Shown piece by piece: positions 5,273 to 13,096 of a DNA stretch of 64,000 nt. Position 1 is the stretch's first letter, and each line of letters starts with the position of its first letter. The notes beneath the pieces are model-generated. The model had not been told where the DNA came from. It saw nothing but the letters and a program-made list of their open reading frames with translations, and searched no databases. The DNA lies in contig CAYSQT010000005.1 in NCBI GenBank assembly GCA_964433525.1, positions 20,103 to 84,102 of the forward strand, given 5' to 3'. This DNA is from an uncultured Pseudomonadota bacterium. GTDB taxonomy: Bacteria; Babelota; Babeliae; Babelales; Vermiphilaceae. A program made the position numbers and the translations under genes.

Positions 5273-5692
5273 ATGGTATTGTACGTACTAGCAATGTTAG
5301 AGCAAGATGGTAAATTATTGTTGCTACTGCGTAAAAACAGTAGATTCTTTAGTGGGTATTATGGATTAGTTGGCGGTAAAATTGAAGAAAAAGAATCGAT
5401 TGCTGATGCACTGATACGTGAAATGTATGAGGAAGTTGGTATTACTGTTTCCAAACAAAATCTTAATTTTGCCCATTGCCTTTCATTTGTTGGAGATGAA
5501 GGAACAGAAGTGGTAGCACTTGTTTTTAAGGTTGCAGAATGGCAAGGATGTGCCATCAATTGTGAGCCAGATAAAGTTGCAGCTCTTACATGGTTTGAAA
5601 TGAATCAGTTGCCCCAAAATATAATCCCACGCCATCGACACATAATAGAGATGGTGCAAGGTGGTATACTTTATTCAGAAAAGGGATGGTAA
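5273..5692 (+). CDS. NUDIX hydrolase
   Basis: 139 aa. Nudix box GGKIEEKESIADALIREMYEEVGI (GX5EX7REUXEEXGU). Confidence 0.85.
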   Translation: MVLYVLAMLEQDGKLLLLLRKNSRFFSGYYGLVGGKIEEKESIADALIREMYEEVGITVSKQNLNFAHCLSFVGDEGTEVVALVFKVAEWQGCAINCEPDKVAALTWFEMNQLPQNIIPRHRHIIEMVQGGILYSEKGW

Positions 5693-5693
5693 T

Positions 5694-6119
5694 TTATTCA
5701 TGTGCATTATGATCAGCAGAGTTTTTGTTATCACCTTTGCCAGCAATCAATACCCCAATGCAAATTGACAAGCACAAAAATGCAAAGCCCCACACTGAAA
5801 ATGGATCACCTTTGTGTAAATGAAACTTAATAGCAACAATAAAAAGACCAATGAGTGGTATTGCAGCAAGCCTTGTTAAAAATTCGCCAATGAGTGCAAT
5901 ACCACCAAAAAATTCAGTAAATGCTGCTAAATAACCCCACCAGAGATATCCTGATGTTATGCCAAATAAATTCATGGTGCTGCCAATTTCAATAAGATGG
6001 TCGGTGTTTTGTGTTAATGCGTATGATAGTTTGTTGTAACCAGAAACAACAAGAACAATGCCAAGTGCGATGCGAATAATAGTGTAGCCAAGTTCAAGAG
6101 ATGATGGGATGTGTTTCAT
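5694..6119 (-). CDS. DoxX-family membrane protein
   Basis: 141 aa with 4 TM segments. RIALGIVLVVSGYNKL and FTEFFGGIALIG are typical of DoxX. Confidence 0.6.
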   Translation of the reverse strand: MKHIPSSLELGYTIIRIALGIVLVVSGYNKLSYALTQNTDHLIEIGSTMNLFGITSGYLWWGYLAAFTEFFGGIALIGEFLTRLAAIPLIGLFIVAIKFHLHKGDPFSVWGFAFLCLSICIGVLIAGKGDNKNSADHNAHE

Positions 6120-6177
6120 AAAGATTCCTTTTTTTGATGGATATTACAAAGAATGTGTTATGTAAGGCAATAAAAAA

Positions 6178-7440
6178 TCATAATATTTTTAATCTTTCTA
6201 TTGTTTCTTCTGATAGATGTAATGTTATGAGCTCTTCTCCTGAGGCTATATAGACAGTTGTGCCGTCAGCAGAGAAGGACATAATTTTTTTTGTTTTATC
6301 AGAGCCTACAATTTTATGTAGATCATAATCTTGGTGATAAGGAGCATTGTCATTTGACACGTTATAAAATGAGATACGTGTATTGTGTGTATTGTTTATC
6401 AATGATGCAAGAATATGATTTGCGTATGGATAAAATGCCATACCCTCAATAGGTTTGGGAGAGTAAGCCCATTGCGTTAGGCCGTTTTCTTGTTGGCTAT
6501 ATATAGCAAAAGAATGAGACATAAGAAGAGCTATAAAATTACCATCTGGGCTATATTTAATAAGGTTATAAGACCCTGATGATAAAATGCATCCATTAAT
6601 CTGTAGTGGTATATGCTTTGTTATCCATGGCGTGTCCAGTAAAAACATTATATTTTGATAAACTAATCCTCTTATTTCGGTGGGAAGTAAGTTGAATATG
6701 GTACGATGTGGAGTATTTATTTTTGACAGTAAATACCATAAGAGAGCATAATTTTGTGGCAATAAATTATGCAAAGTTAAGTGATCTTTATATATTTTGT
6801 ATGCAACTTGATGCCCTTGAGGATGGCATGCTAATAGAGGTATGCGATGTACATTATTTTCATGCCTATCAATTTTAATACAAGACGAGGTTCTTTTGGT
6901 TGAGTCGTTAAGTGAATGCAATTCAATAGAATAAACAATGGAGTCATAACAGGTCTCATCAATGCTGTGCAAAATTATTATATCGTTATTGTGAGGAAAT
7001 AATCCTACTTGATTGCGGCAATATTGATTAAATTTTAGGTTTGCATTCCAGTTTTTTTTTACTTCTTTTGAGCCGTTTGCGTCATAGAGCGTTAATCCCT
7101 CAGTTGTTTGTGTGACAATAAGATCATTGTTTGAAGCAATTGAATGATACGCGATACCGTTTGTTTCTTGTATTTTTGGAGGCAATAATACAAGTGGATT
7201 GTATAGGCAAAGTTTTTGTTGTGGACGAGCTATACCAAAAGGATTGTACGTATTAGATTCTTCTTGCAGGCAAATTATTGCAAGAGATGGATTGTTTGGC
7301 GCATGTGCAAGAGTGCATTGTTGAGATTTTTGTTGAGAATTTTCCATGGCATTTATTGGTGAAATAATGATGATAGCACATAAGAGCAAGATCGTTAATA
7401 ATGCGGTTTGTTTCATAAATAGCCTTTTTGATATAATCAT
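6178..7440 (-). CDS. Secreted beta-propeller-like repeat protein, paralogue 1 of 3
   Basis: 420 aa. Signal peptide MIISKRLFMKQTALLTILLLCAIIIISPINA. Shares the motifs MENS..QCTLAHAPNNP, ACHP, YSPDG and FSADG with 8965-10179 and 10326-11489. Confidence 0.7.
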   Translation of the reverse strand: MIISKRLFMKQTALLTILLLCAIIIISPINAMENSQQKSQQCTLAHAPNNPSLAIICLQEESNTYNPFGIARPQQKLCLYNPLVLLPPKIQETNGIAYHSIASNNDLIVTQTTEGLTLYDANGSKEVKKNWNANLKFNQYCRNQVGLFPHNNDIIILHSIDETCYDSIVYSIELHSLNDSTKRTSSCIKIDRHENNVHRIPLLACHPQGHQVAYKIYKDHLTLHNLLPQNYALLWYLLSKINTPHRTIFNLLPTEIRGLVYQNIMFLLDTPWITKHIPLQINGCILSSGSYNLIKYSPDGNFIALLMSHSFAIYSQQENGLTQWAYSPKPIEGMAFYPYANHILASLINNTHNTRISFYNVSNDNAPYHQDYDLHKIVGSDKTKKIMSFSADGTTVYIASGEELITLHLSEETIERLKIL

Positions 7441-7499
7441 GATTCATAGATATGATAGTAATGTGTGTGGTGTTAAATGTCTATGTACAAGGTTTTTTC

Positions 7500-8108
7500 A
7501 TGTATTTATTACTCAAAGGTATGGCGGTAGGTTTTTCAATAGCGGCGCCGGTTGGAGCAATTGGTTTTTTATGTATTGAACAAACATTAAAAGGTGGTAT
7601 TGCTTTAGGAATAACTTCTGGTCTTGGTGCAGCAACTGCAGACATGATGTATGGTATTATTGTTGCATTGGGGTTGAATGTAAGTCAGTCGTTTTTGCTT
7701 TTTTATACAAAACCACTTTCAATTATTGGTGGATTATTTTTATGTTATTTAGGCGTAAAAAAATTCTTTGCTGTTCCATCTCTTCATGATGGTAATCCTG
7801 TTTACCATGGATTGCTAACCTCTTATGTTGTTACCTTTTTTTTAACGCTCACCAATCCTGCAACAATACTTGATTTTGCTGCATTATTTACTGCATTACA
7901 TATTGACATGTCTGGATACAAAGAGGCGCTTATGTTTATTGTTGGTGTTTTTTGTGGTTCTGCTGCATGGTGGTTCATACTCTGTTTTACGGTGGGAATG
8001 TTCAGAAAAAAGATATCAGTTGCTATGTTGCGTTATATTAACTATGCAGCGGGTGTGGTAATAACGAGTTTTGGTATGTATGCACTGATTACTGCTTTCA
8101 AAAGATAA
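7500..8108 (+). CDS. LysE/RhtB-family amino-acid exporter
   Basis: MYLLLKGMAVGFSIAAPVGAIGFLCIEQ... is a typical LysE N-terminus. The ORF track starts at 7452, but 7441-7499 is duplicated flank of the paralogue family, so ATG 7500 is preferred. Confidence 0.7.
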   Translation: MYLLLKGMAVGFSIAAPVGAIGFLCIEQTLKGGIALGITSGLGAATADMMYGIIVALGLNVSQSFLLFYTKPLSIIGGLFLCYLGVKKFFAVPSLHDGNPVYHGLLTSYVVTFFLTLTNPATILDFAALFTALHIDMSGYKEALMFIVGVFCGSAAWWFILCFTVGMFRKKISVAMLRYINYAAGVVITSFGMYALITAFKR

Positions 8109-8188
8109 AATGTTGTAAATCATAAGATTAAACATATTCCTGCAGTTTGATGTTTAATAAGTAGATTGTCTCTGTGCGCAGATTTTTT

Positions 8189-8818
8189 TTACCCATATTT
8201 TTTGTTGTGGCATGAGTCGCACGCACTTTCTTCGTCGATTTCTTCTTCTTTTATTCTTTTCAGGAGTCCTTGAACTTTTTTTTCCATTCGCTTGTTATTA
8301 TAAATGGGAAGAATTTCGAATATTTTTTTGAAATCAAGAGAAGATGGATTATCGAGATAATAATCATTGTTAAGATATAGTAGATCTAAAAAAGCTCGCT
8401 CTTTTGTAGCGGCAAAATAATAACCTCTATTTTCAACACCAGTGGTATCAGTCAATAGGGTATCTTTTAGTTTGTGAAATGAGTATGCTTGACCGTCACA
8501 AATGATATCTTTGGTTTGGTATGTTGCAACAAATATGGTTGAATAAAATTGGAATATGATTCCCTGTTCAAATAAAATTGTTTCAAAGCTGATATATGCG
8601 GGTGTAAATATTTTTGTTGCAAGTTCGCGTCTATCATAATTTTTATCTTTTGCGTAAAGACCTCGCCTGATAGGATACAACTCTCCTTTTTTAACGTAAT
8701 AATGTATGCGTCTTCTTAAGAGAGATATTTTTGGCTTACTTGTAGCCATTAGTATCTCCTTAAAAGATATAACTGACGCTTTTGACCTAAAGATTCTTAG
8801 TAAGATTGATTTTTCCAC
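8189..8818 (-). CDS. AbiEi-family (type IV TA antitoxin-like) DNA-binding protein with no adjacent toxin
   Basis: 209 aa. YYVKKGELYPIRRGLYA followed by PAYISFETILFEQGII, and later KERAFLDLLYL. This matches the AbiEi pattern (..G.L.r..RG.Y.. / PsYiSlesAL..hGl / ..AllDlly). Confidence 0.5.
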   Translation of the reverse strand: MEKSILLRIFRSKASVISFKEILMATSKPKISLLRRRIHYYVKKGELYPIRRGLYAKDKNYDRRELATKIFTPAYISFETILFEQGIIFQFYSTIFVATYQTKDIICDGQAYSFHKLKDTLLTDTTGVENRGYYFAATKERAFLDLLYLNNDYYLDNPSSLDFKKIFEILPIYNNKRMEKKVQGLLKRIKEEEIDEESACDSCHNKKYG

Positions 8819-8964
8819 TTTTCCTCATATATGAGCCAAAGGTTACATGTAGCGTTATCTTTAACTCATATCACGCATTATTTTTGGTAGGGGTTCAAGA
8901 CATTTTTTGTTTTAGTGTGCTACAATCAATAAAATAGCAAAAAATATAGCTATTGGTTGTAAAT

Positions 8965-10179
8965 TTATAATGATAACTTTTTGAGCTCTGCTACTTTCTC
9001 ATCTGATATTGTGTATTTTATCAGTTCATTTCCTTTTGCTATGTAGAGTATTTTTCCATCTCCAGAAAAGGCCATAATTTTTTTAGTTACTCCTGATGGT
9101 ATGGATTCATTGCAGTTGAGTTCTATAGGCGGCATTCTGTGATTTGCTGCTGAACAATACATGATGCCAGAATTAAATAGTGTGATAGAAATAGGAGACA
9201 AAAAAGGATAAAATGCTGTACAGGCTTGAGGATCATTGTATGGATCTGATGATCTGAGATAGGAAGATTCACTACATTTTTCTGTGAGAGTCTGGTATGT
9301 TAAGTAGTGGTTATTATTGCAAAAAATTACAATTAATGAGCCGTCAGGGCTATATTCAATAAAATGCTGTTTTGAAGGTATAAAAAGATAAGATAATTCT
9401 TGAGCGAAATTTATTCTTTTTGTTATATATTTTATTCCAAGTGAAAGCACTAGGTTTTTACCGATAAGTTCTCTTATTTCCTTTGGAAACAGAGCAAACG
9501 ATGTTTCTTTTGGATCTTCATTGCCATGCAATAAATACGTCATTTCCGCATAGCTTTCAGGAAGAAGATTATGAAGAGCCAATGTACTGTCATCTAGTTT
9601 GAATGCAACTTGTTTTTTGTGTGGATGACATGCAATGAGTGGTTTGAGGTCAATATTGCCTGTCGCACCTGATTTATTAAATCGCTCACAAAAAGAAGTA
9701 ATTTTGTGCTGCAAATTAATAGAATGTATCTCAATAGAATGTGTAATAGTAGTTTCATTTTCATCCACGTTATGCACCACGAAAGTATCATTATCATCGG
9801 GGAATAATGCAATCTGACTGTGACATGTTGTGCCAAGATTTGGATGCCATGACTTTCTTATTTTTTGTTTGGGATTTTGAGAATGTAATTCCAATCCTTT
9901 TTTTCTTTGTATAGTAATCAGATCATTATTTGCAGCGATGGAAAGATAGGTATCATGATCTTTTTCTTTTGTGGTGCAAGAAGAAGTTGTGGGATTGTAA
10001 ATGTAGAGCGCTTTAGGTTCGCACAGAACAACAAGGTTGGGATTATTCGGTGCGTGTACAAGTGTGCACTGTGGTGAATTTTCCATACCATATGTTTGTG
10101 AGGTAATGATGATAACAAATGAGAGCGAGGTCGTTAATAATAGGGTTTGTTTCATAAATAGCCTTTTTGATATAATCAT
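8965..10179 (-). CDS. Secreted beta-propeller-like repeat protein, paralogue 2 of 3
   Basis: 404 aa. Its signal peptide closely matches that of paralogue 1. Its N-terminal ~150 aa and last ~45 aa are near-identical to paralogue 3. Confidence 0.7.
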   Translation of the reverse strand: MIISKRLFMKQTLLLTTSLSFVIIITSQTYGMENSPQCTLVHAPNNPNLVVLCEPKALYIYNPTTSSCTTKEKDHDTYLSIAANNDLITIQRKKGLELHSQNPKQKIRKSWHPNLGTTCHSQIALFPDDNDTFVVHNVDENETTITHSIEIHSINLQHKITSFCERFNKSGATGNIDLKPLIACHPHKKQVAFKLDDSTLALHNLLPESYAEMTYLLHGNEDPKETSFALFPKEIRELIGKNLVLSLGIKYITKRINFAQELSYLFIPSKQHFIEYSPDGSLIVIFCNNNHYLTYQTLTEKCSESSYLRSSDPYNDPQACTAFYPFLSPISITLFNSGIMYCSAANHRMPPIELNCNESIPSGVTKKIMAFSGDGKILYIAKGNELIKYTISDEKVAELKKLSL

Positions 10180-10325
10180 GATTCATAGATATGATATTAA
10201 CATGTGTGATGTTAGATGTCATAAGAAATTGCCCGTGAGATTCCCGGCTACTATCAGCTATAAAAGAATTAAGCGATCGGTTACAGGCGACAAAATAGCA
10301 AAAAATATAGCTATTGGTTGGAAGT

Positions 10326-11489
10326 TTATAATGATAACTGCTTGATCTTTTCTACCGTCTCTTCTGATATTGTATATTTTATCAATTCATTTTCTTTTGC
10401 TATGTACAGTATTTTTCCATCCCCAGAAAAGGCCATAATTTTTTTAGTTACTCCTGAAGGTATGGATTCATTGCAATTGAGTTTTATGGTCTCAGAAAAG
10501 TGCTCTTCATTATCACAGCAAATCGAGCCATCTTGAAACAACCGAGCAAGAGTTTGCTTTGTGTTAGGGTAGAATGCAAAAGAGGCTATAGGAGTGCTAA
10601 ATGGATGTGATTGAGTCTTGCGACTTTTTTCTATTGTATGGTATGTCCATAGATAATTATTATTAAACTCCCCTTGAAATAAAAGCATAATTGAAATGCC
10701 ATCAGGGCTGTATTCAATAAGGTCATAAGAGTGCGTTAACCTACTTCTTTTTATTTTTTGAGTTATCCGTTTGATTCCCAGCGAATGTGCTAGATTTGTA
10801 CTGATTAGATTTCGTATTTCTTCCGGCAACTCATTAAAAATGGTTTTTTCTGTGTTGTTATTGCAATGGAGCAGATGCATTATCAATAAATCTCTTAAGT
10901 CAGGGAGCACAATATTGTGCAAAGCCAATGTATAATTGTTTAATTTAAACGCAACTTGATTTTTGTACGGATGGCATGCAATGAGCGGTTTAAGATTAAT
11001 ACTATTTTTTGCCTTATCAAATGTTTGACAAAAAGAAATTTTTTTGTGCGATGAGTTGATAGAATGAATCTCAACAGAATGAGTAATAGTAGTTTCATTT
11101 TCATCTATATTATGGACCACTAAAGTATCATTATCATTGGGAAATAACGCAATTTGATTGCGGCATGTTGTACCAAGATTTGGATGCCATGTTTTTCTTA
11201 TTTTTTGTGCATGATCTTGATAGTGTAGTTCAAGGCCATTTTTTGTTTGTATGGCTATGATGTCATTATTTGCAGCGATGGAATGATAGGTATCACGCCC
11301 TTTTTTTTTTGTAGTGCAAGAAGAAGTTGTGGGATTGTAAAAGTAGAGCGCTTTAGGTTCGCACAGAACAATGAGATCGGGGTTATTTGGTGCGTGCGCA
11401 AGGGTGCATTGTGGTGAATTTTCCATTCCATATGCTTGTTCATTGATGACAAAAAAAAAGAAGAAAAACAGCATGACTATGTAATGCAT
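10326..11489 (-). CDS. Secreted beta-propeller-like repeat protein, paralogue 3 of 3
   Basis: 387 aa. It has a different hydrophobic N-terminus (MHYIVMLFFFFFFVINEQAYG). From MENSPQCTLAHAPNNP onward it is collinear with paralogue 2. Confidence 0.7.
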   Translation of the reverse strand: MHYIVMLFFFFFFVINEQAYGMENSPQCTLAHAPNNPDLIVLCEPKALYFYNPTTSSCTTKKKGRDTYHSIAANNDIIAIQTKNGLELHYQDHAQKIRKTWHPNLGTTCRNQIALFPNDNDTLVVHNIDENETTITHSVEIHSINSSHKKISFCQTFDKAKNSINLKPLIACHPYKNQVAFKLNNYTLALHNIVLPDLRDLLIMHLLHCNNNTEKTIFNELPEEIRNLISTNLAHSLGIKRITQKIKRSRLTHSYDLIEYSPDGISIMLLFQGEFNNNYLWTYHTIEKSRKTQSHPFSTPIASFAFYPNTKQTLARLFQDGSICCDNEEHFSETIKLNCNESIPSGVTKKIMAFSGDGKILYIAKENELIKYTISEETVEKIKQLSL

Positions 11490-11557
11490 ACAAAGTCTCC
11501 TTCACATTGCTTTACTGATTATGTTACATATGAAAACATAAAAAAGAGATATATGCA

Positions 11558-13096
11558 ATGGGAGGGGCTATGTCGAACTATAAAAAAGTAATTGGCGTAA
11601 TTATAGGCTTCGTGTTTTTGTGTGTTTTATATTATGCGTTCAGTTCTGTTTCAAACAAATCGTTTCCTTTTTCAGCGCCAACATTCGATACATATGTTGA
11701 ATCTATTATGAAAGATTGGCATGTTCCGGGTCTTGCGCTCGCAGTAATTAATGGTGAAAAGATTGCATACATAAAAGCATATGGTGTGTTGCAACATGGT
11801 AGCGCGGAACGCGTTAATAAAGATACTATTTTTGCAATTGGTTCATGCACAAAAATGTTTACCGCTGCATCTCTGGGAATTCTTGTTGATGATGATTTAT
11901 TGCAATGGGAAGATAAGGCTCGTACATATTTACCAGTGTTGAAATTACCAACTGAATGTATGACACAAGAATTAAACATCATAGATATGCTTTCGCATCG
12001 AAGCGGTTTAGAGGAAGTAGGTATGTTGTGGGATCATACGACATTGTCACGACAACAATTAATAGAACATATGCGCTTTTTAAAACCCATAGTTGGATTT
12101 AGAGAAGGATGGGTGTACAACAATTTAATGTATCTTGCTGCAGGTGAAATAGTTTCTGCCATTGCCGGTGTGAGCTGGGATGAATTTCTTGCGCAACGTA
12201 TTTTTTTACCATTAGGCATGGGTAGAACCAATACAACAATAACAACGTTAGCTGATGAATCAAATAGGGCTACGCCACATTATGTAATGGATGGTGAAGT
12301 TCACACTATTGCATCGCACAATATAGACAGTATTGCACCCGCCGGTGGTATTAATTCTACCATTGCAGATATGGCAAAGTGGTTGCAGTTGTTGGTGAAT
12401 AGTGGTGAGTACAATGACGCATCATTAATAAAAAAAGAAACAGTTGCGCAAATGAGCGAACCTGCTGCTATTGTGCATAAAAAGTATCCATATCAATTGT
12501 ACGGTTTAGGGCTTGGCATGTTTGCATATCAAGGGAATGAAGTTATATTCCACGAAGGCAATATTGATGGAATGTCAGCATCGCTCGCCATTATGCCGGA
12601 AAAAAAGATTGGTATTGTTATTTTGACTAATATGCACAGAGGTGGTGTCGGTAAAGTGTTACTCAACACTATTTTTGACAAATATCTTGGTGTTCAAGAT
12701 GTACCGGATTGGAATAAAAAAGATCTTGAACATGAGCGCAAGCGCATTGCAGAATTTACAGCAGAAGAAGAAAAAAAAGAACGCAGCAAGCTGGTAGATA
12801 CAATTGCACCGCGTCCTTTATCAGATTATGTTGGCGTGTATCAGAATGATTTATATGGAGACATGACAATTACAATGAAAGATGGCATTTTGATGTGTAC
12901 ATTTTTGATTTACAAGGGTGCATTAATACATTGGAATGGCAACATATTTACGTTTGATACTTCGCACATCAATCCTCTGCTATCAAGTCCATTTTATCTT
13001 GCGTTTGATTATCAAGGGGATGCTGTCAAGAAAGTTCACATCACCTATGCTGATATCTGGATGAATGACATGGATGCTGAGTTTATTAAAAAGTAG
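11558..13096 (+). CDS. Serine hydrolase, class C beta-lactamase/PBP family, with C-terminal extension
   Basis: 512 aa. SxxK motif in FAIGSCTKMF, YxN in WVYNNL, and an N-terminal TM/signal. The start could instead be ATG 11570, which lies after GGAGGGG. Confidence 0.8.
   Translation: MGGAMSNYKKVIGVIIGFVFLCVLYYAFSSVSNKSFPFSAPTFDTYVESIMKDWHVPGLALAVINGEKIAYIKAYGVLQHGSAERVNKDTIFAIGSCTKMFTAASLGILVDDDLLQWEDKARTYLPVLKLPTECMTQELNIIDMLSHRSGLEEVGMLWDHTTLSRQQLIEHMRFLKPIVGFREGWVYNNLMYLAAGEIVSAIAGVSWDEFLAQRIFLPLGMGRTNTTITTLADESNRATPHYVMDGEVHTIASHNIDSIAPAGGINSTIADMAKWLQLLVNSGEYNDASLIKKETVAQMSEPAAIVHKKYPYQLYGLGLGMFAYQGNEVIFHEGNIDGMSASLAIMPEKKIGIVILTNMHRGGVGKVLLNTIFDKYLGVQDVPDWNKKDLEHERKRIAEFTAEEEKKERSKLVDTIAPRPLSDYVGVYQNDLYGDMTITMKDGILMCTFLIYKGALIHWNGNIFTFDTSHINPLLSSPFYLAFDYQGDAVKKVHITYADIWMNDMDAEFIKK

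Follow-up and report, generated by a model that had tools for sequence, protein, structure and literature searches.

A mosaic of gene conversion tracts in three paralogous genes for predicted exported WD40-type propellers of an uncultured Babelales bacterium

The 64-kb stretch of DNA analysed here (the window; contig CAYSQT010000005.1, positions 20,103 to 84,102) carries three open reading frames (ORFs) for paralogous proteins on its minus strand, labelled P1 (6178-7440), P2 (8965-10179) and P3 (10326-11489). These coordinates are exactly those of a preliminary description made from the sequence alone, and our alignment agrees that the three are collinear. P1 encodes 420 amino acids from its first ATG, or 412 from the likely start at 7416 (MKQT), P2 encodes 404, or 396 from the likely start at 10155, and P3 encodes 387. 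All three genes are intact, in frame and full length, each with its own start and ribosome-binding site (RBS), and they are putatively expressed. Protein identity is 41% for P1-P2, 39% for P1-P3 and about 59-60% for P2-P3. The genes had been described as three tandem paralogues; this holds for P2 and P3, whereas P1 is set apart from them by a LysE-family gene and an AbiEi-like gene. A tblastn search of the window detected no other copy or fragment of the family. A mosaic produced by recombination or gene conversion, with at least three tracts of different ages, is well supported for these genes, and P2 is its chimeric member. The proteins themselves are, on the basis of a structural model, a divergent subfamily of the WD40 propellers.

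The borders of the mosaic blocks were obtained from a sliding-window comparison of the DNA, a repeat search and a likelihood change-point analysis, and all three agree. P2 and P3 have two blocks in common, both on the minus strand, as are all the blocks given below. Tract B (9719-10099 in P2, with its counterpart at 11059-11439 in P3) spans the mature N-terminus through blade 3, residues 28-154 of P2, and is 85% identical over 381 nt. Within it, 60-nt windows reach 91-97% around P2 10036-9992, and a younger core lies at about 9937-10020. Tract C (8933-9121 in P2, 10294-10482 in P3; 189 nt at 91%) holds blade 7, the C-terminal helix and 3' flank, and ends 32 nt past the stop codon; the repeat search gives 8921-9126 and 10282-10487 at 89%, which places the flank similarity at 32-44 nt. 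Between the two tracts lies the divergent centre (9122-9718 in P2, 10483-11058 in P3), which is composed of two segments. The intermediate segment (P2 9718-9410, P3 11058-10750) is 65% identical over 315 nt and covers the end of blade 3, blade 4 and a helical insert, and the most divergent segment (P2 9409-9122, P3 10750-10483) is 48% identical over 300 nt and covers the last strand of blade 4 and blades 5-6. The strong divergence of the centre and the shared 3' block with its flank, both of which had been pointed out earlier, are thus borne out. The N-terminal block, which had been called almost identical, is real and averages only 85%. Likewise, the near-identical ends attributed to all three genes are a property of P2 and P3 and not of P1, which stands outside these blocks, at about 50% identity to P2 and P3 throughout.

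A further block, which the preliminary description had overlooked, joins P1 to P2. Tract A (7367-7480 in P1, 10106-10219 in P2) is 114 nt long at 89% identity, or 151 nt at 86% by the repeat search. It starts about 40 nt 5' of the ATG (41 nt by the repeat search), runs through the signal peptide and contains a -35/-10-like pair (7483 to 7455 in P1), the 5' untranslated region (5'UTR), the RBS and the signal-peptide codons. P3 is without it. The tract ends 7 nt short of the start of tract B, at the junction of the signal peptide and the mature protein (MENS). P2 is therefore a three-part chimera, since P1-like sequence stops 7 nt before P3-like sequence begins. The direction of transfer can be read from the closest relative outside the window, P0004, a JGI metagenome protein encoded on a 1.7-kb contig (L001). 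Its gene is convergent with a LysE gene (75% identical to that of the window) at a distance of 12 nt, without an AbiEi gene, and P0004 is therefore syntenic with P2. Both P3 and P0004 have another type of signal peptide, whereas those of P1 and P2 are alike, and the tract takes in the intergenic promoter region between P1 and LysE; these two observations indicate that tract A was copied from P1 to P2, so that the P2 copy is the probable recipient of a P1-type cassette of promoter, 5'UTR and signal peptide. Promoter-like hexamers in this AT-rich region were not enriched over shuffles (25 against 31.7 expected) and are suggestive only, although the -35/-10-like pair is kept in both copies. Tract A also has a plus-strand promoter-like site, TTGATA-17-TATGAT (10/12 matches), at 7428-7456 and 10167-10195; the copy at the P1 locus faces LysE, and the copy upstream of P2 is antisense into the 3' end of P3. 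A hairpin in the 3' flank of tract C was considered as a terminator and set aside as weak (z about -1.5 to -1.6; 18-21 of 200 shuffles fold equally well).

The proportions of synonymous and nonsynonymous differences (pS and pN) were calculated by the Nei-Gojobori method on a codon alignment of P1, P2, P3 and P0004. For P2-P3, pS is 0.73 in the signal peptide, 0.44 in an N block of 166 codons (from the mature start to the LHN motif, and hence reaching beyond tract B), 0.08 in a 27-codon core of that block, 0.60 in the helical insert, 0.66 in the central blades and 0.26 in the last 56 codons. For P1-P2, it is 0.09 in the first 31 codons as compared with about 0.7 elsewhere. The same blocks in every other pair are at or near saturation (pS 0.50-0.9), and synonymous sites are therefore not generally constrained. 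Permutation of the variable sites, in the manner of Sawyer and GENECONV, was significant in two pairs, P2-P3 and P1-P2 (P = 0.0002 in each), and gave no signal in any other. Because pS itself varies between blocks and the permutation is significant at this level, the mosaic reflects recombination or gene conversion and not uneven constraint. The gene conversion proposed earlier is thereby upheld, as pS in the tracts (0.08-0.44) lies below that of the rest of the gene in these pairs (0.60-0.73); divergence along the alignment is heterogeneous, not uniform, and the tracts are non-random. Tracts of low pS, their reach into the flanks and their non-random placement, by which concerted evolution is recognized, are all found in P1-P3.

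That no recombination took place, and that the blocks record purifying selection which conserved the ends and left the centre free, is a proposal to which we give almost no credence. The ratio pN/pS is indeed lower in the N block (0.27) than in the centre (about 0.65-0.7, with centre pS saturated), as that proposal would have it. But in P2-P3, and likewise in P1-P2, pS varies four- to eight-fold from block to block, where every other pair is saturated; the permutation speaks against it, and similarity extends to non-coding flanks, about 40 nt upstream and 32-44 nt downstream; the pattern of pS and the homology of the flanks effectively refute it already. The purifying selection seen in the N block also makes it unlikely that P1-P3 are pseudogenes, a status that had been named as one that would refute the proposal. 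In every pair pN is highest in the centre (0.38-0.52, as compared with 0.12-0.35 in the N block), and for P2-P3 the centre has pN of 0.34-0.45. The diversifying selection that had been suggested for the centre was not borne out by these values, for pN/pS is about 0.7 with pS saturated and relaxed constraint fits equally well.

The LysE orthologues of the window and of L001 (pS 0.62, pN 0.17) served as a yardstick of age. The pS of the P2-P3 centre matches that of LysE, and we infer that the two centres are as old as the split of the window and L001 lineages. It is nevertheless conceivable that P2 and P3 are fairly recent tandem duplicates and that the centre of one copy was later replaced by recombination with a divergent allele of another strain or with an unseen paralogue. 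Only one family gene occupies the P2/P3 position in L001 (the upstream neighbour of the P0004 gene is not a family member), to which a duplication after the lineage split is suited, and the pS of 0.44 in the N block is below the orthologue yardstick of 0.62. We regard this replacement as unlikely. Neither centre is closer to a known sequence, amino acid identity being 0.37-0.43 for P2-P3, P2-P0004 and P3-P0004, and neither the window nor public data yielded a donor. Several events would be required anyway, given the unequal ages of the tracts (pS 0.08, 0.26 and 0.44), and for tract A a transfer from P1 within the genome is clear.

An independent assembly bears on whether the locus is correctly joined. 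A Logan short-read contig (L083, run SRR8931233) encodes an identical P1 protein, and P1 with 7.4 kb of its flank matches the window base for base where checked. Positions 1-41 of L083 correspond to window 7457-7417, and the contig ends inside a stretch of about 50 nt that is identical between P1 and P2. Since L083 breaks off inside it, the P1/P2 repeat is independently shown to be real, and the breaking of k-mer assembly by this repeat may be the reason for the absence of P2 and P3 from the assembly of L083. The absence of P2 and P3 from independent assembly records, together with the break of the short-read assembly at the P1/P2 repeat, could also be taken to mean that the P2/P3 mosaic is an assembly chimera, the product of collapsed strain variants or mis-joined repeats. 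This is very improbable, as the three ORFs are intact, in frame and coherent in their blade structure, and the tracts are 85-91% identical with graded ages, where mis-joins would give perfect identity and abrupt junctions; the agreement of P1 and its flank with L083 argues the same way.

The fold was examined with AlphaFold2 (AF2). A first run with four sequences gave a predicted local distance difference test (pLDDT) score of 47, too poor to use; with an alignment of nine sequences, the model of P1 reached a pLDDT of 74.8 and a predicted template-modelling score (pTM) of 0.76. It is all-beta, with 28 strands arranged as seven four-stranded blades, and a C-terminal helix. Blades 5-6, which form the most divergent segment, are confidently folded (pLDDT 76-91). 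A Foldseek search of the PDB returned 882 hits at E <= 0.001, the top ones being seven-bladed WD40 domains with probability 1.0 and a target TM score of 0.65-0.72 (WDR61, AND-1, Cdc20 and RACK1, and also the bacterial PkwA). When PDB sequences were searched with a family profile, the matches included a bacterial WD40 protein, 2ymu (2.5e-16), as well as designed WRAP-T proteins (5.5e-11) and WDR5 (1e-4). The propeller fold that had been expected from sequence is therefore supported by structure prediction. As for the type of blade, described as WD40/TolB-like, the WD40 part stands, with seven blades and a bacterial WD40 protein as the best PDB sequence match; the TolB part is less apt, as none of P1-P3 has a PD40 (PF07676) hit.

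The likeness to WD40 proteins is distant at the level of sequence. P1-P3 do not reach the gathering score of any Pfam WD40 or propeller family (Beta-prop_EML_2 comes closest, with 23.7 bits where 90 are required, and P2 has no hit at all), the canonical GH/WD dipeptides are absent and their alignment has no WD periodicity. Only blades 5-7 are recognisable by sequence. An exhaustive HMMER search of 1.84 billion representatives found 253 proteins at E <= 0.001. Some of them are short family members, few in number; the others are long and made up of many repeats, and those that were scanned have strong Pfam WD40 domains; the C-terminal 120 or so residues of the family match more than 240 long WD40 proteins, while a handful of proteins of 360-440 residues share the full architecture. 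The motifs listed in the preliminary description are present. They are not separate motifs but one blade signature, hydrophobic-x-hydrophobic-[S/H/A]-P-[D/N]-[G/N], which occurs once per blade and seven times in all (LAHAPNNP, SIASNND, GLFPHNND, LACHPQGH, KYSPDGN, AFYPYAN and SFSADGT). All four close members (P1, P2, P3 and P0004) have five invariant cysteines in common.

The best reading of the N-termini is that P1-P3 are exported by the Sec route with a predicted signal peptide of the signal peptidase I type. The N-termini of P1-P3 and P0004 are hydrophobic (12-residue Kyte-Doolittle mean 2.4-3.4) with small residues at -1 and -3, and cleavage-type ends (INA, TYG, AYG and IHA) stand directly before MENS in each, with no lipobox. 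A Shine-Dalgarno sequence GAAGGAG lies 7 nt 5' of the P3 ATG (about 11497-11503), and AAAAGG lies 7 nt 5' of the MKQT ATG in P1 (7416) and of its counterpart in P2; a gene caller likewise uses the MKQT starts (product P0003 for P1). The MENS methionine (codons at 7347-7349 in P1, 10086-10088 in P2 and 11426-11428 in P3) was considered as the true start of proteins without a signal peptide. It was ruled out, as nothing comparable to these Shine-Dalgarno sequences precedes the MENS ATG and the RBS sits before the upstream ATGs only. The secretion proposed earlier is thus backed, in prediction, by translation signals at the upstream starts.

The residues that follow the cleavage site form a pattern of their own. 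On related contigs, many signal-peptide proteins (L085:8020-, several L086 genes, L088:2514-3761) have Met-Glu or Met-Asp right after the predicted cleavage site, in the variants MENS, MENN, MEND, MESN, MDNS, MELG and MEEK, as if an old start codon had been kept behind an added signal peptide. In the window, methionine follows the cleavage site only in the three family genes and in one other exported protein (36264, ...GLA followed by MTEI). The Met-Glu/Asp junction could be a relic of a 5' extension, a dual start or a sorting signal. A Met-Glu-Asn-type junction is present in most secreted WD40 proteins on related contigs, and it is a speculative and quite unlikely idea that cassettes of promoter and signal peptide are swapped between genes at this conserved, initiator-like junction. 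If true, such swapping would be a modular route by which cytosolic eukaryote-like proteins become exported effectors and their expression is rewired.

The SecY protein of the window is 62-67% identical to those of metagenome-assembled genomes of Dependentiae/Babeliales and at most 55% identical to anything else, and the window has a GC content of about 36%. Dependentiae (TM6)/Babeliales are obligate intracellular associates of protists and form a widespread, almost uncultured phylum of protist parasites. A TLC ATP/ADP translocase, a hallmark of energy parasitism, is encoded at 651-2042 on the plus strand. Together, SecY, the translocase and the GC content place the source of the window among the uncultured members of this phylum. 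To our knowledge, the effector repertoires of Dependentiae are essentially uncharacterised. The close family of P1-P3 has four members among 5.8 billion proteins, namely P1, P2, P3 and P0004. No relatives were found in the GTDB species representatives, a scan of metagenome contigs returned the family on L001 only, and no named or cultured member appeared in a search with a 15-sequence alignment. The family is unnamed, restricted to the Dependentiae lineage, about 400 residues in length and very rare in public data. Among the more distant candidates, the gene downstream of P0010 on contig L084 was ruled out as a paralogue, and so were the neighbours of P0005 on L088 as family members.

The helical insert in blade 4 is encoded at 6637-6756 in P1 (residues 229-268, about 40 residues; minus strand), with equivalents at 9439-9558 in P2 and 10779-10904 in P3, also on the minus strand. 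By DSSP, the helices of the P1 model are H229-239, H248-251 and H254-268, and the insert carries LLPTEIRGLV. It is missing from the distant members P0007 and P0008. Many very distant members also have a helix of the form LPxEI(R/K)xxI, which is central in P0005, P0010 and P0023 and C-terminal in P0026 and P0120. This helix resembles helix 1 of the F-box, the only F-box helix that is matched. The inserts of P1-P3 gave no F-box hit at E <= 10 (only DUF7730 at 0.19 for P1), and a profile of six insert sequences against the PDB found no F-box protein. Relatives come closer at sub-threshold scores, with a segment of P0026 matching PF00646 at E = 0.005 (17.1 against 20.5 bits) and P0010 matching PRANC at 0.018; these weak hits, like that to DUF7730, are all to models of the F-box type. 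It is a speculative and quite unlikely possibility that the family mimics the F-box/WD40 substrate receptors of eukaryotes, in which case the LPxEI(R/K)xxI helix would dock host Skp1 or a cullin ligase and blades 5-6 would pick host proteins for ubiquitination; on this same improbable proposal, some branches would also be tied to host membranes by prenylation of a C-terminal CaaX box. P0023 (513 residues, a distant member from outside the window) has, besides its central LPTEIKNII helix, a C-terminal hydrophobic tail, ICLLKLIFLCVCIPIIYAI, which would be another membrane anchor besides the CaaX boxes of other branches.

CaaX boxes, which are substrates of eukaryotic prenyltransferases, occur in several distant relatives. 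A scaffold of 36% GC that is presumed to be from Dependentiae (L086; ENA ERZ28656490 scaffold_282) encodes at 7954-12069 three tandem, same-strand distant family members, G1-G3. All three end in a polybasic stretch and a CaaX box (CAVQ, CAVQ and CVLQ; RKPKSQDNCAVQ twice and SRKSKKENKCVLQ once), and no other ORF of L086 does so. P0010 ends in CPLL; by comparison, only 1 of 61 ORFs in the window ends in C-x-x-x. Legionella effectors such as AnkB carry CaaX boxes and are prenylated by the host, AnkB being farnesylated (PMC2916131). The ends of G1-G3 suggest host prenylation, so that a part of the family would act inside the host cell, and as the enzymes that use CaaX are eukaryotic, these relatives provide the best evidence of such action for at least part of the family. 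The mosaic of P1-P3 was not found in the L086 array, where pS is saturated throughout with a slight dip only at the 3' end of G1-G2; the mosaic is thus specific to the P1-P3 locus, even though tandem arrays recur. A difference in the length of the middle gene between L086 and L087 (466 and 414 residues) was considered as strain variation or a frameshift and traced to gene calling, the DNA being the same save for one upstream single-nucleotide polymorphism.

The explanation that we prefer, at a probability of about 0.6, is that P1-P3 are Sec-exported seven-bladed WD40 propellers shaped by gene conversion, with blades 5-6 and the insert setting a ligand specificity that is probably directed at the host. 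At least three separate, non-reciprocal tracts of recombination (gene conversion) have shaped the locus. Through tract A, the promoter, 5'UTR and signal-peptide cassette of P1 was copied onto P2. Tract B homogenised the mature N-terminus through blade 3 of P2 and P3, in no fewer than two episodes, and tract C did so for blade 7 and the C-terminal helix, together with 32 nt of 3' flank. The helical insert and blades 5-6 were left out of this homogenisation, and P2 and P3 are as diverged there as any two family members. The propeller would serve as a protein-binding module in which the insert and blades 5-6 give each paralogue a different partner, while the conserved blades and ends would keep a common scaffold, export and regulation. 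Less certainly, the partners would be molecules of the protist host, and the proteins secreted host-interaction proteins or effectors. Host interaction is, with moderate confidence, the most likely function, and an envelope role its main rival. It is suggested by the fast evolution of the family (pN about twice that of the neighbouring LysE gene, 0.30-0.38 against 0.17), its near-orphan status, the recurrent tandem arrays, the CaaX ends of relatives and the precedent of Dependentiae effectors.

Several observations weigh against this explanation. P1-P3 have no CaaX box, as they end in KIL, LSL and LSL (and P0004 in ESL) with no cysteine there, and the relatives that do have one are only about 15-20% identical to the window proteins. 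We know of no established route in Dependentiae from the periplasm to the host cytosol. With an uncertain alignment of only four sequences there, and with saturated pS, the centre does not demonstrate positive selection, intragenomic conversion is not fully separable from the import of a divergent central segment, and P2 and P3 have no record in any independent assembly. Genes on a further Logan contig (L085; SRR8931233 contig 363769) point to the cell envelope. This contig comes from the same run as L083 and has a window-like GC content, and it may belong to the same genome as the window. It encodes two distant paralogues with signal peptides, P0007 and P0161, which share 32% identity; the gene for P0161 begins 4 nt beyond the end of a BamA-like gene, and P0007 comes after a gene for a 477-residue protein similar to outer-membrane proteins (L085:110-2785 and 5367-7981). 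The two flank cell-division genes (ftsL/ftsI-like), and an adjacent WD40 protein of more than 900 residues has a signal peptide.

These neighbours raise the possibility that P1-P3 are envelope components that are not delivered to the host, but either surface proteins or propeller scaffolds of the periplasm or outer membrane, with a role like that of BamB, TolB or YncE. In that case, exposure at the surface or a relaxed constraint would account for the variable blades. The predicted Sec signal peptides and the conserved cysteines suit the periplasm or the surface, P1-P3 are without a CaaX box, and the periplasmic propeller YncE is among the Foldseek matches, at rank 50. We hold this to be possible though not probable. 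The L085 paralogues are only about 22-28% identical to P1-P3, there is no lipobox, and there is no specific likeness to BamB, with its eight blades, or to TolB, with its six blades and PD40 repeats. Housekeeping envelope factors are usually conserved and single-copy, whereas this family is near-orphan, fast-evolving and arrayed, and the CaaX boxes of its other branches make sense only in a eukaryotic cytosol. For these reasons we favour host-directed propellers over envelope components.

The two genes between P1 and P2 are outside the propeller family. The LysE-family gene (7452-8108, plus strand; Pfam LysE 1.2e-21, with the domain from residue 29) is divergent from P1, and its true start is probably M17 at 7500 rather than 7452. 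The AbiEi_4-domain gene (8189-8818, minus strand; 8.8e-6, 26.2 bits against a cutoff of 25) is of the antitoxin or regulator type and has no adjacent AbiEii toxin partner; it is missing at the equivalent place in the syntenic L001, which indicates an insertion in the window or a loss in L001. Just past the left end of the window, L083:10106-11280 encodes a protein of more than 500 residues with an Ntox21 toxin domain. An Rfam scan of the window gave no matches. Of the A/T homopolymers of at least 9 nt in the window, 3/8 lie inside P1 and P3, while P1-P3 together make up about 6% of its length. They are an A9 in P1 (7052-7060), an A10 that encodes KKK in P3 (11301-11310) and a T9 in the signal-peptide codons of P3 (11451-11459). 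These runs are possible sites of slippage, and hence of phase variation; the enrichment, of roughly P = 0.01, was noticed post hoc.

The locus offers a defined, unnamed family of exported WD40 propellers, as predicted, with a usable structural model. It is a clear example, with tracts of graded age, of patchy gene conversion in the reduced genome of an intracellular bacterium, where a cassette of promoter and signal peptide was among the segments transferred. Through the CaaX-bearing relatives, a connection with host prenylation is open to testing, and perhaps there is also one with host ubiquitin ligases. If blades 5-6 do set the specificity for host targets, the family would be a compact model for the diversification of symbiont binding modules on a common chassis.

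Neither the fold nor the evolutionary mechanism is of a new kind. P1-P3 have in common with the WD40 superfamily (2ymu of Nostoc, PkwA 5yzv, WDR61, Cdc20 and RACK1) the seven four-stranded blades and an FSPDG-type strand-turn motif in each blade, and differ from it in the lack of the canonical GH/WD dipeptides, in scores below the Pfam gathering level and in having a predicted Sec signal peptide and the insert in blade 4. The TolB/PD40 propellers, in contrast, have six blades, whereas P1-P3 have seven and no PD40 hit. The FBXW receptors FBXW7 and beta-TrCP also combine a WD40 propeller with a short L-P-x-E-I-x-x-x-I helix, the signature of F-box helix 1. In P1-P3, however, the motif is inside blade 4 (and C-terminal in P0026 and P0120) and not N-terminal to the propeller, only one helix is matched, and the segment after the motif is too short for F-box helices 2-3.

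The mosaic had been likened to that of an antigen family. The cassette systems of antigenic variation, msp2, vlsE and pilE/pilS, consist of one expression site and silent donors. P1-P3 do not follow this scheme, as there are no silent donor cassettes in the window and the tracts homogenise the ends instead of shuffling the centre. The closest evolutionary analogue is the bab family of Helicobacter pylori. The products of babA, babB and babC are nearly the same at both termini and diverge in the middle, the part presumed to determine what they bind (PMC4552749), and conversion between their loci creates chimeras with a swapped 5' region, including its regulatory properties (PMC4552749). P2 is likewise a chimera, with a P1-type 5' cassette on a P3-type body. 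The folds are unrelated (an outer-membrane protein of the Hop family as opposed to a WD40 propeller), and the organisms and lifestyles differ. The bab loci are dispersed, and babB has CT-repeat phase variation. The tracts of P1-P3 are older, at 85-91% identity, with no strain-to-strain switching observed.

With respect to function, P1-P3 differ from the effectors of Legionella, which go without a Sec signal peptide and enter the host by Dot/Icm injection, in that a Sec signal peptide is predicted for them and a CaaX box is absent. Ends like those of AnkB, polybasic with CaaX, are present only in distant family members (G1-G3 of L086, and P0010 for the CaaX box). Dependentiae genomes encode WD40, F-box, LRR, TPR and ankyrin proteins that have been read as host-interaction factors (PMC4776705), and in Chromulinavorax destructans 44% of the coding sequences have signal peptides, a set that is enriched in ORFans and presumed effectors (PMC6561590). 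P1-P3 resemble the eukaryote-like effectors of amoeba-associated bacteria in the intracellular setting of a protist host, in an interaction domain of eukaryotic type and in a lineage-specific expansion.

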